Shown one piece after another: positions 2,881 to 25,804 of a stretch of DNA of 64,000 nt. Positions within the stretch are counted from its first letter, which is position 1. Every line of letters starts with the position of its first letter. This stretch comes from Candidatus Stahliibacteriota bacterium (lineage in GTDB: Bacteria; Hydrothermota; Tepidihabitantia; SM23-42): contig JAUWCU010000003.1 of assembly GCA_030609135.1 (NCBI GenBank), forward strand, positions 55 to 64,054, in the 5' to 3' direction. Both the position numbers and the translations under genes were made by a program. The notes under the pieces are model-generated. The model saw only the letters and a program-made list of their open reading frames with translations, ran no database searches and was not told where the DNA came from.

Positions 2881-5451
2881 ATGAATTATCATATTATTTT
2901 AGTGCTTTTCATAAATAATCTTTCATTTATCCCTGGTATTAACGATACAATTACAATACACCAGTGGCAATATCTGGGTCCTTTTTCAATGGGGATGCGT
3001 GAGGGGATCATCGGCGTCGAGGAAAATATTAGACTTCTTGAGGATTTTGAGCCAGATAAAAGGTCGATATATCCAAGTCTTCTCGTGCAGGGCGGCAAAG
3101 TCATGTGGCGAACAATAGAATCTGCTAATGGAATAGTTAAGATCGAATATGAAAATGTCTTATGGGATAGTATTCAGGATTATTATGGTGCTGCCGGAGT
3201 TCTCTGCGGCGCTTATGCCTACGGTGATTTTAGTAGCGGCAGCACAAGGAGAGCATTGGTTATTGCACAAGATGTTTCTTCCTTCATCTTGAACGGCGTG
3301 AAATTCCCGGGTGATCCCTATAGCAATGGATTTTTGCAGGTCCCGGTTGTTCTAAACGAGGGAAAGAACAGAGTAATAGTCAAACTCAGCGGGTTTGGGG
3401 ACCATGAATTCACATTTAAACTCATCCCCGTACCAGGTCCTTTAATGTTGATAACCAAAGATATTACTACACCGGATTTTTTAAGGGGTGAACCGGTATG
3501 TGCCTGGGCAGGGATACCGATTGTCAATGCGACAAATCAGAGACTCTTTGATATTCAACTTAAAATAGAAGGCGTGAACATTAAAACAGACATTCAAACG
3601 GTTGCTAATATAATGCCTTTTTCAGCGGTTAAGATACCATTGAACATCGAATCAGAAGATAAAATAGAGACAGAAGAGGATAGCATTCTGATAACTATAA
3701 CGGCTTCCTTTGACACTTTTTCTACACAAGAAGATTTCTGGATCAAAGTGAAGCATAGAGATGAAGCATATGTTAAGACCTTTGTCTCTAATATAGATAA
3801 TTCATGCCAATACTATGCGATTCTGCCACCAGAAAACTATAATGAAGATTCATCTTATGCCCTCATAATGACTTGTCATGGAGCCAGTGTTAAGGCAAGA
3901 GGTCAGGTGAAAGCCTATACACAGAAGGATTGGGCTTTTGTCGTTGCGCCGACTAATCGCCGCAGGTTTGGTTTTGACTGGCAGGATTGGGGTAGACTCG
4001 ATTTTCTTGAGGTTCTGGAAGATGTTAAGAAGAATTTCAAGATTGATACAAATAGAATCTATCTTACTGGACATTCTATGGGTGGCCATGGTGCCTGGCA
4101 TATCGGCATAACCCATCCAGATATCTTCGCGGCAATGGCACCTTCTGCTGGATGGACCAGCTTTCAACTCTATGTCCCGTGGTTTCTTCAAAAAAGTGAG
4201 CTCTTTGCGCATCCTGATCTGATAAAGTATCGCGATATGGTATTGCGACAAGACAATCCGCTTTTATTCCTGGAAAACGCATATAATCTGCCGATCTATA
4301 TCTTGCAAGGCGGAACTGATGACAATGTGCCTCCAATCCAGGCAAGAATGTTCTGCAAATATCTGACCAATCTTGGCTATGATTATATATACAACGAGCT
4401 TGAGGGCAAAGGTCACTGGTGGAATATAGATTCCACGCCAGGTACTGACTGTGTGGATTTAAAAGAAATGATGGATTTTCTGAAAACCAAGGTGCGCAAC
4501 CCCTACCCTGAACGTATAATCTTCAAAACCTCAGATGTTGACTGTTCAAATAAGGCATACTGGGTGAGGATCGATGAACTTGAAAATCTATACCAGGATG
4601 GGATAATAGATATTTGGAAAACTGGAATGATAGGAGATCACACCGTGTTTTCAGTGGGACCACGCATTGGGTTCTTGGTGAAAACGAGCAACATAAACGG
4701 ATTCACCGTAGTATTAAATGATAAGGTTATTCCTAAAAGCATGCTAGGTGGAAAAATATGGTTTGAAATTAATGGTCAAAAAATTGCCTTCGACTATAAA
4801 GAAATAAGCGAAATTTCCTTCCACAAAAACAATGTGGGATTTGAAATCGTCAAACCGAAAGACCAAGGCTTGAAAAAACAGAAAAGGTTTTATGGACCTA
4901 TAAAAAAGGCATATTTTGAGCCTTTTGTTCTTGTCTATGGCACAACTGGAGATTCGGTTTCGACCGAGAACAACCTTCACCAAGCACGATTACAGTCTTA
5001 TACCTGGTGGTATCGGGCAAATGGATTTGTTGAGATACTGCCTGACACTGAAGTTACCGAAAAAATTATCAAAAACTATAACCTTGTTCTCTTTGGGAAT
5101 CCTGTAACTAACTCCATTCTCAAGTGGATTAGCTACAGATTACCTCTTCATATTGAAGAAGGTAGAGTGATTGTTGATAGAGATACAATAAGGGGGGATC
5201 TCTGTCTTGTAGAAATATATCCCAACCCTCTAAACCCTGAAAAATTCGTATTATTATATTCAGCAACTACAAAACCCGCAGAGAAATTAATCGGTCTATT
5301 TTCCACACTTTATGCAGGTGCCGGTTTACCTGATTTTCTTGTTTATGATAAATCAGCGCTTAAATACGGATGGGGTGGTGTAAACGCAGCCGGTTTTTTT
5401 GACAAAGACTGGAAATTTGATAGTAAATTGAGTTACTACTCAGAACCTTAA
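2881..5451 (+). CDS. Large alpha/beta-hydrolase-fold protein (prolyl-oligopeptidase/esterase-like serine hydrolase core) with long unassigned N- and C-terminal regions
   Basis: 856-aa ORF. Nucleophile elbow LTGHSMGGHGAW; later ..YILQGGTDDNVPP.. and ..GKGHWW.. fit Asp/His triad positions. No motif recognised in the first ~330 or last ~300 aa. Confidence 0.6.
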   Translation: MNYHIILVLFINNLSFIPGINDTITIHQWQYLGPFSMGMREGIIGVEENIRLLEDFEPDKRSIYPSLLVQGGKVMWRTIESANGIVKIEYENVLWDSIQDYYGAAGVLCGAYAYGDFSSGSTRRALVIAQDVSSFILNGVKFPGDPYSNGFLQVPVVLNEGKNRVIVKLSGFGDHEFTFKLIPVPGPLMLITKDITTPDFLRGEPVCAWAGIPIVNATNQRLFDIQLKIEGVNIKTDIQTVANIMPFSAVKIPLNIESEDKIETEEDSILITITASFDTFSTQEDFWIKVKHRDEAYVKTFVSNIDNSCQYYAILPPENYNEDSSYALIMTCHGASVKARGQVKAYTQKDWAFVVAPTNRRRFGFDWQDWGRLDFLEVLEDVKKNFKIDTNRIYLTGHSMGGHGAWHIGITHPDIFAAMAPSAGWTSFQLYVPWFLQKSELFAHPDLIKYRDMVLRQDNPLLFLENAYNLPIYILQGGTDDNVPPIQARMFCKYLTNLGYDYIYNELEGKGHWWNIDSTPGTDCVDLKEMMDFLKTKVRNPYPERIIFKTSDVDCSNKAYWVRIDELENLYQDGIIDIWKTGMIGDHTVFSVGPRIGFLVKTSNINGFTVVLNDKVIPKSMLGGKIWFEINGQKIAFDYKEISEISFHKNNVGFEIVKPKDQGLKKQKRFYGPIKKAYFEPFVLVYGTTGDSVSTENNLHQARLQSYTWWYRANGFVEILPDTEVTEKIIKNYNLVLFGNPVTNSILKWISYRLPLHIEEGRVIVDRDTIRGDLCLVEIYPNPLNPEKFVLLYSATTKPAEKLIGLFSTLYAGAGLPDFLVYDKSALKYGWGGVNAAGFFDKDWKFDSKLSYYSEP

Positions 5452-22826: not shown

Positions 22827-24278
22827 CTAATGAATTGTTTCTCGTATCAATTTTGTACTACGGCAGGATTTTCTTTTGATCGTAAATACTGCATGCATTT
22901 GTTTGGCTACAGCCCTTGCTTTTGATCGGTTGTCACAAATGATTTCTATTAAACATTCGCCTTTTTTTACATAATCACCGATTTTTTGGTTGACTTTAAA
23001 TCCACATGATGGGTCGATTTTGTCTTCCTTTTTAAGTCTACCCCCACCCAATTGTACGAGCAACATGCCGATATCAAAAGTATCAATATGATGTATATAC
23101 CCTGTTTGTTGTGCTTTGATTTTAATTCTATTTTTTGCTACTGGTAAACGTGAATAATCATCAATGATACGAACATCACCACCCTGATAATGAATAATCT
23201 CTTTAAATTTATTTAAGGCTTCACGGTTTGCTATCTTTTTCTCAAGGAGGTTTTTCCCGCCTTTAATTTTAGCGAGCTTAAGCATTGCCTTGCCAAGCTC
23301 GAACGTGACTTCCATCAAATCCTTTGGACCACTGCCCTTTAGCGCCTCGATCGTTTCAATAATCTCTAAAGAATTGCCTATATAGTTACCTAATGGATTA
23401 TTCATATCAGTTAGGATGGCGATGACTTTAACTTGGAATCCCCCGTTGCTTGCGGCGTGGGATGAGATATAATACTCCCTCTCCCTTGAGGGAGAGGGTA
23501 GGGGTGAGGGTGAAATTGAAAGTAAGATACCCTGCCCCAAGGGGCAGGGAGCTTCATTCTTTTTGCAACGAGAGTCTCGTTGCACTCCAAAGCGTTTGCC
23601 GATTTGAATCATGGTCCGCGCAAGCTTTTTTGCTTTTTTATAATCAGTCATGAATGCGCCACTGCCAAATTTCACATCGAGCACCAGACCATCGAGATTT
23701 TCAGCAAGTTTCTTAGACATTATGCTTGCGGCAATGAGAGGGATTGAATCAACCGTTGCTGTTACATCGCGCAAGGCATATATTTTTTTGTCAGCGGGCG
23801 CAATTTCTCCGGTTTGTCCAATCATGGCAACGCCAAGTCTTTTTAACTGGCGCTTGAATGCTTTGAGCGTTAGATTAGTACGAAACCCGGGGATTGATTC
23901 TAATTTGTCTAAAGTACCACCTGTATGACCCAGACCGCGACCCGAAATCATGGGCATACAGATACCACATGATGCCATCAAAGGTGCCAGAATAAGTGAT
24001 ACCTTATCACCGACCCCGCCCGTAGAATGCTTGTCGATCTTTGGCTTTTTAATTTCTGAAAGGTTGAGCATCTTTCCAGTGTGCATCATGGCTTGCATCA
24101 AATCAGTGGTTTCGTTAATATCCATACCCTGAAAATATACCGCCATTAAAAAGGCAGCCAGTTGATAGTCAGGGATATTGTGTTTTGTGTATTCAGAAAT
24201 CAGATACTTTATTTCGTGTTCATTTAATTTTTTACCATCACGTTTTTTACGAATAATATCAAGGACGCTAAATTCCAT
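22827..24278 (-). CDS. pdp: pyrimidine-nucleoside (thymidine) phosphorylase carrying a 50-codon in-frame insert
   Basis: KHSTGGVGDKVSL, SGRGLGHTGGTLDKLE, ALRDVTATVDSIPLIAASIMSKK. Start moved to ATG 24278 (MEFSVLDIIRKKRDGKKL..). Confidence 0.9.
   Translation of the reverse strand: MEFSVLDIIRKKRDGKKLNEHEIKYLISEYTKHNIPDYQLAAFLMAVYFQGMDINETTDLMQAMMHTGKMLNLSEIKKPKIDKHSTGGVGDKVSLILAPLMASCGICMPMISGRGLGHTGGTLDKLESIPGFRTNLTLKAFKRQLKRLGVAMIGQTGEIAPADKKIYALRDVTATVDSIPLIAASIMSKKLAENLDGLVLDVKFGSGAFMTDYKKAKKLARTMIQIGKRFGVQRDSRCKKNEAPCPLGQGILLSISPSPLPSPSREREYYISSHAASNGGFQVKVIAILTDMNNPLGNYIGNSLEIIETIEALKGSGPKDLMEVTFELGKAMLKLAKIKGGKNLLEKKIANREALNKFKEIIHYQGGDVRIIDDYSRLPVAKNRIKIKAQQTGYIHHIDTFDIGMLLVQLGGGRLKKEDKIDPSCGFKVNQKIGDYVKKGECLIEIICDNRSKARAVAKQMHAVFTIKRKSCRSTKLIRETIH
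23433..23582. repeat. 150-nt hairpin-repeat insertion inside the pdp reading frame
   Basis: Three hairpins: ccctctcccttgagggagaggg (23477..23498), ccctgccccaaggggcaggg (23530..23549) and tgcaacgagagtctcgttgca (23564..23584). Same module types as the intergenic repeats at 11010 and 25617. Confidence 0.8.
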
Positions 24279-24912
24279 TACACCCCATAGCTTCGCGCAA
24301 TCGCTTGCACGATGCGCATTTACCGCACATTTCTTTTTTGCCAAGATAGCACGAGTAAACATATTGGACAGGCGCCTTGTATTTTAGTCCGAGTTTGTAG
24401 ATTTGTTTCTTTGTATATTCAAGAACAAAGCTCCTCACCTTAACCTTGGTAAGTGTGCTGAACATTAGGGCGTGGTTTATTGCTGCCATGAATTGTGGTC
24501 TGTTGTCCGGGAATTCTTCGGCTTCTTCGCGGTTAAACCCTGTAATAATGAACTCGGCGCCTAAATATTCTGCATAACACGCCGCAATATTTATGAAAAG
24601 ACCATTTCTGTTTGGAATCCAAACGTTCTTTAAGTTGCTAAATTTCCTAATCCTGACATTTTTGGACTGAAGCATAAGGAGTTTCTTGAATTCTTTGAAA
24701 AAAGGTATTTTGATAACCTTGTGTTTGATTTGTAATGCCTTACATATCTTTCTGGATGCGGAAATTTCCATTTTTGCAGCCCGTTGGCCATAATCAAATG
24801 TTAGCGCAAATAGCGGTCTTGTTTTCTTCTTGGCTATTGTCGCGCTGACTAAGGAGTCAAGACCGCCGGATAGGAGGATGATGCTCTTCAATTGGCGAGA
24901 TTGCTTCGTCAT
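24268..24912 (-). CDS. queC: 7-cyano-7-deazaguanine synthase
   Basis: PP-loop LLSGGLDS; C-terminal Zn motif CGKCASC. Start moved to ATG 24912 (MTKQSRQLKSIILLSGGLDS). The upstream 63 codons of the track ORF are repeat DNA. Confidence 0.9.
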   Translation of the reverse strand: MTKQSRQLKSIILLSGGLDSLVSATIAKKKTRPLFALTFDYGQRAAKMEISASRKICKALQIKHKVIKIPFFKEFKKLLMLQSKNVRIRKFSNLKNVWIPNRNGLFINIAACYAEYLGAEFIITGFNREEAEEFPDNRPQFMAAINHALMFSTLTKVKVRSFVLEYTKKQIYKLGLKYKAPVQYVYSCYLGKKEMCGKCASCKRLREAMGCNGI

Positions 24913-25173
24913 TTCATTCCTCGCAATGACAAGGAGAGAGGGGTTCCTCGCAATGACAAGGAGAGATGAGTATTTTCGAATGACGCAAGGAGTAGGGGCT
25001 TTAGCCCCGTCGTATATCGAAGCTTTGAAGATGTGAGGCTCAGAACCTCTGAACTTCTCAACTTCGAGATTGCTTTGGGGCTGCGTGTCTTGCAATGACA
25101 AGAATGGTGGGTATTCTTTGCCCGACCGATGAGTGTGTCATTGCGAGCCTGAACGAAGTTAAGGCGTGGCAAT
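24913..25173. repeat. Repeat cluster between queD and queC
   Basis: Two tandem CCTCGCAATGAC-aaggagaga units, the 63-nt unit at 24992..25054, and GAGATTGC../..GTCATTGCGAGC..GGCAATCT units of the 'gtcattgcga...gaagcaatctc' family. Confidence 0.8.
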
Positions 25174-25533
25174 CTAATCTTCATAATATGTGACGGTATT
25201 GTTACGTCCTTCCCACACCGTGACCGCTTTCATCATATTAATTTTTTTCTTCATTTCATTAAAAACATACATCGCGACATATTCTGCGGTGGCATTACGT
25301 TCTTTGAAATATTTAAGCTCATTCAAGTTTTTGTGGTCGAGTTCAGAAAGTATTTCATCAAGCGCGGTTTTCACACGTCTGAAGTCAATAGCCATCCCTA
25401 TATTATCCAGCTTATCCACTTTTAATATTACTCTTACCTGATAAGTATGGCCGTGTATACCAGCACAATCACCAGGATATCCTTTTACCTGGTGTGCTGC
25501 TGAAAATATTCCTTCAACTGAAAGATCAAACAT
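25174..25533 (-). CDS. queD: 6-carboxy-5,6,7,8-tetrahydropterin synthase
   Basis: 119 aa; HGHTYQVRV zinc-ligand motif; size typical of QueD. Confidence 0.9.
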   Translation of the reverse strand: MFDLSVEGIFSAAHQVKGYPGDCAGIHGHTYQVRVILKVDKLDNIGMAIDFRRVKTALDEILSELDHKNLNELKYFKERNATAEYVAMYVFNEMKKKINMMKAVTVWEGRNNTVTYYED

Positions 25534-25804
25534 TATCTCCCCCTAATATAAAACACCTCCACCCACTGAAACAATACTGAAATGATATTCAGCACAAGGT
25601 TCAGGGCAAGCTTTTTCCTCCCCCTTCCAGGGGGAGGAAGACAGTTTGCAGTCTTTTCCTTGTGGGAAAGCCCTTCTGGGCTTGATATTCGCGGGCAGCC
25701 CGCGCCGCTTCGCAAGGCGAGGCCGGGCAAGCCCGCTCCCACTATGCAAATGCCTAAAACACCTAAACCCCGTTAGATGTGTACTATCTAAATGGGGTAA
25801 ACAC
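25534..25804. repeat. Repeat cluster between the DUF4416-like gene and queD
   Basis: Contains the inverted copy of the 2738 unit (25566..25622), the hairpin cctcccccttccagggggagg (25617..25637) and a relative of the 11097 unit (25663..25745). Overlapping track ORFs here look repeat-encoded. Confidence 0.8.

Follow-up and report, generated by a model that had tools for sequence, protein, structure and literature searches.

A short palindromic repeat unit as the probable source of the queC start at a queD-queC junction of Candidatus Stahliibacteriota

The DNA considered here (the window) is a stretch of 64,000 nt of contig JAUWCU010000003.1 (GCA_030609135.1), from an uncultured Candidatus Stahliibacteriota bacterium. 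Its minus strand carries, in this order, queD, a spacer of 261 nt, the tRNA-modification gene queC and a pyrimidine-nucleoside phosphorylase gene, and the spacer between queD and queC is made nearly wholly of repeats. One of these repeats, called here the start-donor unit, would give queC its Shine-Dalgarno site, its start codon and its first five amino acids, a reading to which a probability of about 0.78 is assigned on comparative grounds. The features of the junction are the following:

24268..24912, minus strand: proposed coding sequence of queC (214 aa and a stop codon), with the start at ATG 24912-24910 (MTKQSRQLKSIILLSGGLDS...), placed by TIGR00364 and by the invariance of the ATG
24889..24891, minus strand: rival start TTG (MKSIILL, 207 aa), 6 nt past the unit, without a Shine-Dalgarno motif
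24897-24930, minus strand: start-donor unit of 34 nt, GTCATTGCGAGGAATGAAATGACGAAGCAATCTC, found by pattern match, with GAGG at 24919-24922, ATG at 24910-24912 and the next four codons, 2-5, for T K Q S
24917-24971, minus strand: two tandem 27-nt half-units (CCTCTCTCCTTGTCATTGCGAGGAAC), Tandem Repeats Finder 2.0 copies, 92% match
~24995-25065, minus strand: long, imperfect hairpin element (GAAGTTGAGAAGTTCAGAGGTTCTGAGCCTCACATCTTC ... GGGGCTAAAGCCCC), in single copy in the window
25066-25099, minus strand: second full unit, GTCATTGCAAGACACGCAGCCCCAAAGCAATCTC, found by pattern match
25137-25175, plus strand: inverted unit (GTCATTGCGAGCC...GGCAATCT on the plus strand), whose outer minus-strand end is TAGATTGCC
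24909..25184, minus strand: bridging open reading frame (ORF) of 91 codons, from the ancestral queC ATG to a TGA that overlaps the new ATG
24268..25101, minus strand: ORF of 277 aa with a TTG start, the longest queC ORF, whose first 63 codons are repeat read-through
25174..25533, minus strand: queD (6-carboxytetrahydropterin synthase), which precedes queC in the operon, TIGR03367

ATG 24912 stands in the central part of the start-donor unit, and the GAGG motif 6 nt upstream of it, inside the same unit, has ordinary Shine-Dalgarno spacing. Inverted units (AGATTGC...GCAATCT) stand at both ends of the cluster. On the queD side, the queD stop TAG (25174-25176) is supplied by TAGATTGCC, the outer end of the inverted unit, and this junction is common to all filled relatives; the ancestral queC ATG survives at 25184 (tattATGAA), 8 nt before the queD stop. 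The match of queD to TIGR03367 has E = 2e-24 and 85.8 bits, slightly under the cut-off of 89.25, and the gene is called PTPS in relatives.

The relatives compared are loci from metagenome-assembled genomes of Candidatus Stahlbacteria / WOR-3 and bear L numbers. The 27-nt half-unit is present once in L002 and L071, twice in the window and three times in L033 and L085, and these changes of copy number preserve the frame. The whole spacer is hypervariable among near-identical QueC alleles (L090, reverse complement 3300-3581; L085; L033; L071). The '63-nt unit' that the first-pass annotation had placed in the spacer is a real element, as the hairpin element lies at the same site in L003, L004, L006, L008, L031 and L032 and has a second copy in L006; within the window it is single-copy (<=3 mismatches over 39 nt). 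The hairpin element has no Rfam match. Its superficial likeness to a preQ1-I aptamer (AGAGGTTCTGAGCCTC...) led to a preQ1 riboswitch being considered and rejected, as an Rfam scan of 24700-25400 with E up to 10 gave nothing relevant; the whole window at gathering thresholds gave one tRNA only.

The units belong to a family of short palindromic repeats, GTCATTGC...GCAATCT, of which both arms, the spacing and a copy number above chance were found. The pattern GTCATTGY-N(8-36)-GCRATCTC is matched 5 times in the window, where 0.01 matches are expected by chance (5 were reached in 0/100 shuffles); ACGAAGCAATCTC has 4 against 0.08 expected, and CCTCGCAATGAC has 6 against 0.15, with copies at 24919-24930 and 24946-24957. 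The queC loci together hold 17 units of this family, and the 33-nt variant of the start-donor unit occurs, identical, at other positions in L005 and L033. At least 120 metagenome stretches contain the exact 32-mer that includes the ATG; among the matches listed there are 128 copies, which are mainly intergenic and lie on contigs with a GC content of 0.30-0.60, and in a few of them the ATG opens a long ORF. The ATG is therefore taken to be native to the repeat, and the start codon would be a by-product of the palindrome because ATGAC complements the GTCAT arm of the family. The unit has one open frame, the other two meeting TGA at -4 and +1 of the ATG (GAA TGA A ATGA). Searches of the literature with the strings GTCATTGCGAG, CGAAGCAATCTC, GAGATTGCTTCG and CCTCGCAATGAC returned unrelated primer matches only, and the family is apparently undescribed and very widespread.

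Three types of queD-queC junction are found among the relatives. At the empty sites (L001, whose QueC is 93% identical to that of the window, L007 and L009) queD and queC overlap. The junction of L001 and L007 reads TAT TAT GAA ACC TAA (TATTATGAAACCTAA), with queC ATG AAA CCT/CTT embedded in it to give MKPKS/MKLKS; in L009 the queC start lies farther upstream within queD (MRQRITKHRS). At the hairpin-type sites (L003, L004, L006 and L008) a spacer of 107-135 nt contains the TAGATTGCC end and the hairpin element, and ATG AAA CCT/ACT/CCA is kept to the right of the insert. The comparison of L001 (empty) with L003 (hairpin-filled) shows that ATGAA, 5 bp, is duplicated; no clean target-site duplication was identifiable at the unit-type junction.

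The unit-type sites are those of the window, L002, L031, L032, L033/L085, L034/L035, L036, L071 and L090/L120, and all of them have the same right junction: the unit, three codons (CGY/CAC, CAA/AAA/CGA, TTG/TCG/TTC) and AAG AGY ATC, which is conserved. The ancestral ATG AAA CCT is absent from these sites, and the window has CGC CAA TTG in that place, followed by AAG AGC ATC. In an alignment of eight unit-type sequences (window, L002, L031-L034, L036 and L071) the columns of the Shine-Dalgarno A-G-G and of TGAAATG are invariant in 8/8. The codon that is TTG 24891 in the window is TCG in L034/L035 and TTC in L036, and L031 has a 30-nt insertion right after the ATG that keeps the frame and is stop-free.

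A second lineage, TA06 DG_78 (L010/L037 and the diverged L038), has a QueC 67-69% identical to that of the window. In its sequences the unit GTCATTGCGAGGAAYGAAGTGACGAAGCAATCT (GAGGAAYGAAGTG) lies 21 nt upstream of AGG AAA CCC AAA AGT, where AGG AAA CCC differs by a single base from the ancestral ATG AAA CCC, and the GTG of the unit, with GAGGA upstream, is the sole canonical in-frame start. This lineage offers the clearest evidence that the unit may have taken over initiation and that the old start then decayed. The series from empty site through intermediate to filled site, together with this second independent lineage, documents comparatively the probable replacement of the start of a core gene by mobile repeat DNA, and it would show one way in which an operon junction can survive a repeat insertion.

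In a neighbour-joining tree built from the QueC core, loci of the three junction types intermingle, and the unit-bearing alleles do not form a clade. L004 (no unit) and L031 (unit) have QueC proteins 97% identical, and those of L005 and L033 are 92% identical with differing junction types. A history of one insertion followed by vertical descent is set aside because of this interleaving, and recombination or repeated turnover is favoured. Since one right junction is found in all the unit-type loci, a single origin, spread or removed by recombination, is the simplest reading.

The protein itself is identified as QueC. Its match to the equivalog TIGR00364 reaches 188.3 bits (cut-off 150.3) over profile positions 2-200 of 201, and the hallmarks of TIGR00364 / PF06508 are present: the PP-loop in SIILLSGGLDS after a short beta-strand, and the Cys cluster CGKCASC. 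QueC homologues reach 93% identity to the window protein, and about 100/120 of the best ones have 205-208 aa and start with MKPKSIILLSGG or a close variant (MKPKS-like). In alignments with the ATG-started protein, residues 3-4 of the structures 2PG3 and 3BL5 are the first to match, at its residues 7-9; the solved QueC structures have just 2-3 residues ahead of the first strand, and the ~5-7 additional N-terminal residues of the window protein are probably unstructured. The first-pass annotation had called queC an essential gene, which is too strong because queuosine-deficient Escherichia coli mutants are viable. No exact entry for the 214-, 277- or 207-aa version was found in the protein collection searched, so there is no public gene call for the window allele. 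Gene callers give QueC from these organisms 211 to 230+ residues, depending on how far they reach into the repeats.

All that the first-pass annotation had described from the letters alone stands at the coordinates it gave. The ORF of 277 aa with 63 codons ahead of ATG 24912 exists, its residue 64 being that ATG, and the upstream codons are translated repeats, including the two tandem 27-nt copies at 24917-24971. The ATG had been located inside a repeat unit, and it does lie in the unit 24897-24930(-), whose GAGG at 24919-24922 adds a Shine-Dalgarno-like motif to the original observation. The proposal that the queC start and extreme N-terminus derive from repeat DNA agrees with the presence of ATG AAA CCT in the relatives that lack the unit and with the invariant ATG and AGG of the unit. 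MTKQS conserved independently of the repeat would have spoken against it; in every DNA fetched for homologues starting with MTKQS/MAKQS the unit is present, and proteins from loci without the unit start with MKPKS.

Sequence comparison establishes, then, that the unit is a repeat, that the site exists in empty and in filled form, that the old start has been lost and that the new ATG and AGG are conserved; from this we infer that ribosomes start at ATG 24912. A composite cluster of short palindromic units, similar to a MITE (miniature transposable element with inverted repeats), would have entered the overlapping queD-queC junction. The left inverted unit would then end the queD frame with a new stop (TAGATTGCC), and the right unit, 24897-24930, would contribute GAGG, the ATG that follows it after 6 nt, and the T K Q S of codons 2-5. 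Ribosomes would reach ATG 24912 directly through the Shine-Dalgarno site of the unit. Shine-Dalgarno sites precede 15/45 first ATGs, against a background of 7.5%, and this use of such sites in the organism makes direct initiation at GAGG-N6-ATG plausible. Concerning translation signals in the window more generally, a clear AGGAGG-type site is found in about one third of the genes; many genes have instead a TATAAT-like box ~7-12 nt before the ATG and no Shine-Dalgarno site (for example at ATGs 2881, 21361, 34510, 49031(-), 53082(-) and 57731), and this suggests that leaderless mRNAs are frequent in this organism.

A second route to the new start may exist. The ORF 24909..25184 begins at the ancestral ATG, crosses the entire repeat cluster, and its TGA overlaps the new queC ATG (ATGA). 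Such a bridging ORF is present in 6/7 of the tabulated unit-bearing queC loci (the exception is L032) and, as read from their sequences, in L071 and L090/L120; the second lineage has it in both sequences, and the hairpin-type loci in 2/5. It has 82 codons in L002 and also in L031, 36 in L033, 34 in L034 and 32 in L036 (stopping in the last two at the -4 TGA) and 18 in L071. In the second lineage it has 25 codons in L010 (an ATGA marks the queD stop there, a GTGA the queC start) and 22 in L038; the hairpin-type examples are those of L003 (49 codons) and L006 (38 codons). L090 has a relay of two ORFs: in L090/L120 the half-unit array is duplicated, which leads to two coupled ORFs (27 + 56 codons) before queC. 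The shorter bridging ORFs are individually non-significant. Folding predictions give the spacer RNA a strong structure (z = -4.5) in which the outer ends of the units pair and both ATG and GAGG lie within stems, and for this reason coupling by termination and reinitiation is proposed as the second route: ribosomes would translate the bridging ORF from ATG 25184 and end at the ATGA of the new start. Its translation would keep queD and queC coupled and could open the structure that is predicted around the start. Coupling of this kind, resembling that of the MIRU repeats described below, is regarded as possible, at somewhat less than even odds.

Several points weigh against the start at ATG 24912 and its coupling to queD as they have been set out. 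TTG 24891 is still available in the window, and a product started there would have 207 aa, the modal length. Conservation of the unit could have a cause other than translation, and because of recombination or turnover the 8 unit-bearing 'lineages' are not fully independent witnesses. The derivation of CGC CAA TTG from ATG AAA CCT by point changes needs too many substitutions. Covariation support is absent for the stem of the unit itself, and the consensus fold of a lone unit is weak (-4.6 kcal/mol), so that no structural claim is drawn from it. As for the bridging ORF, it is absent from L004, L005, L008 and L032; in the window its frame is open in 2.7% of shuffles, which is modestly significant; and the repeat DNA on the queC strand is poor in stops, two of its three frames being mostly open.

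The availability of TTG 24891 leads to the first alternative, in which translation starts there (MKSIILLSGG) and the unit is merely 5' untranslated DNA with an ATG in frame. The length of the product fits the modal range of the homologues, the QueC profile begins at the next residues, and the TTG is present in the window, L002, L031, L032, L033 and L071. However, it has no preceding Shine-Dalgarno motif; in L034/L035 and L036, where the codon is TCG or TTC, the ATG of the unit is the sole canonical start, and the second lineage has no equivalent of the TTG. Besides, the 30 nt inserted between ATG and TTG in L031 keep the frame and bring no stop. This alternative is judged unlikely. The opposite possibility, a QueC with a repeat-encoded extension of 63 residues (including SSLLVIARNPSLLVIARNE) that starts at TTG 25101 or another upstream codon, is favoured by the 63 codons being open in the window and by the in-frame repeats inside other genes of this genome, but the corresponding stretch has in-frame stops in L032 (-69), L034 (-78) and L036 (-114), its length follows the repeat copy number in the relatives, and the extension matches no region of QueC. 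Such a protein is very improbable. The TIGR00364 match beginning at residue 74 of the 277-aa ORF, the structures, the homologue starts and the stops in relatives support, as the first-pass annotation had held, that these first 63 codons would be untranslated repeat DNA that is open in frame by chance.

With the ancestral ATG AAA CCT gone, it can also be asked whether queC lost its start on repeat insertion and is now an untranslated pseudogene. This is hardly credible for a gene with an unbroken ORF that keeps both the PP-loop SGGLDS and the C-terminal Cys cluster and scores above the TIGR00364 cut-off; the unit-bearing alleles are 73-89% identical in the QueC core without frameshifts or stops, and the adjacent Q-pathway genes are intact. 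A repeat-induced chimera in a metagenome-assembled genome is a reasonable concern, given that short-read assemblies are commonly broken or mis-joined by repeats, but the junction between unit and queC is found again in independent assemblies whose samples and sources differ (NCBI, ENA, JGI and Logan), which makes an artefact extremely improbable.

The reading in which the unit supplies the queC start at ATG 24912 can be compared with known systems, as comparable events are on record for other repeat families (Neisseria REP2, MIRU). In Neisseria REP2, and in similar inverted repeats of Borrelia plasmids, a ribosome-binding site together with an ATG is fused to downstream ORFs (PMC3184786). The queC unit holds GAGG and an ATG, which appears to be the sole conserved start. 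REP2 is however longer, includes a promoter and a 5' untranslated region and is described without terminal inverted repeats, whereas the queC unit is a palindrome of 33-34 nt that would have replaced an existing start inside an operon; the two have no known sequence relation and are likened by description. No convincing sigma-70-like promoter was found in the unit, the region having 5 weak matches against 2.3 expected.

MIRUs (mycobacterial interspersed repetitive units) are short repeats within operons, with an internal ORF that overlaps the flanking stop and start (-4 nt, ATGA-type); they can be inserted at start codons (PMC12548453), and their tandem copy number is variable (both properties of ORF and copy number in PMC3184786; PMC12548453). 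The queC junction resembles them in the ORF 24909..25184, which reaches from the end of queD to the queC start with its ATGA, and in the variable number, 1-3, of its 27-nt copies. In contrast to a MIRU, which keeps the start codon of its host gene, the window queC lost ATG AAA CCT and the repeat would give a new start with a Shine-Dalgarno site; sequence family and phylum are different too, and the coupling proposed here is deduced from the ORF. Rickettsia palindromic elements (RPEs), the pneumococcal RUP, BOX and SPRITE elements and the Bordetella BRE are found in frame within genes or extending their 5' or 3' ends (PMC3184786). The in-frame repeat inserts of the window in deoA and in an epimerase gene are comparable to RPE, RUP, BOX and BRE, but all these families add residues, and the replacement of an ancestral start with empty-site relatives was not found in the reports consulted on them. 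The queC case joins properties like those of REP2 and of MIRU in a palindromic family of 33 nt that is not known to be related to them and comes from an uncultured phylum, with loss of the original start.

A further likeness is to the REP/BIME-RAYT systems, in palindromic units of ~30-40 nt that stand singly, in inverted pairs or in clusters, and in a nuclease gene flanked by units. The RAYT is an IS200/IS605-like Y1 transposase, whereas the candidate enzyme here is a GIY-YIG nuclease, of another family; none of the searches, which were not aimed at RAYT, turned up a RAYT. Small GIY-YIG (PF01541) genes flanked by units were found by phmmer at L102:3153-3531, L075 (reverse complement 4643-5012), L134:2142-2502, L123 (reverse complement 2109-2406) and L156:3300-3549, these five being among ~120 loci chosen solely for holding the 32-mer. 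Units lie on both sides within ~100 nt in 4/5 of them, and on one side, as far as detected, in L123. This arrangement, analogous to that of REP and RAYT, suggests that the GIY-YIG protein is a candidate mobilising nuclease. Literature searches for a link of GIY-YIG with REP or MITEs gave nothing relevant. In the TA06 relative a GIY-YIG gene (L037:792-1052) adjoins queD.

From these observations a wider idea can be put forward, that the unit in its GAGG-AATGA-AATGA-C form is a widely travelling, portable translation-restart cassette mobilised by the flanked GIY-YIG nucleases, in a new partnership similar to REP-RAYT that extends across many phyla. It is speculative and considered doubtful. The examples available are queC in two lineages, the GIY-YIG gene of L134, where the ATG of the 32-mer starts the gene and the Pfam domain begins at residue 5, directly after MTKQS, and a prepilin-like leader. 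If the idea were true, ribosomes arriving in any frame would be delivered to a new start, and the cassette could settle in overlapping junctions or at the 5' ends of genes without polar damage. In any case both the repeat family, which is widespread, and its candidate nuclease partner deserve notice. In the prepilin-like ORF (L087:147-215) the entire leader peptide (MTKQSQRLLRSARNDDGG|FTLIEV...) comes from a forward unit followed by a reverse unit.

Other repeat insertions were observed in the window and in its relatives. The phosphorylase gene downstream of queC (22830-24278, minus strand) has, against an L034 orthologue otherwise 64% identical, an in-frame insertion of 51 aa at 23424-23576 (...RDSRCKKNEAPCPLGQGILLSISPSPLPSPSREREYYISSHAASNGGFQV...), which looks like another repeat family tolerated in a coding sequence, in the manner of RPEs. 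An epimerase/dehydratase ORF at 39437-40615 contains in frame a half-unit and a 47-nt full unit at 39630-39702 on the plus strand (...NSHCQEPSSSVIARNPEFVEGDEAISPN...); its Pfam Epimerase match is taken up again only at residue 131, position 48 of the profile, so a large insert within the Rossmann region is implied. Upstream of this gene, at 39190-39257 (plus strand), facing inverted units (GTCATTGTGAAGGCGAAGTCCGAAGCAATCTC caaaaaa GAGATCGCTTCGTTCACACTCGCGATGAC) make a long hairpin.

Within the operon of queC, the spacer of 270 nt between the DUF4416 gene and queD (25534-25804, minus strand) carries a G/C-rich palindrome (CTTCCTCCCCCTGGAAGGGGGAGGAA); the relatives L034 and L036 have just 3-16 nt there, so this spacer is probably another repeat insertion. 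At 24268-24278 queC overlaps the downstream phosphorylase gene (ATGGAATTTAG), and in L033 and L005 the queC-phosphorylase junction is filled with units of the family, including the identical ATG-bearing variant. Overlapping gene junctions seem to be recurrent landing sites.

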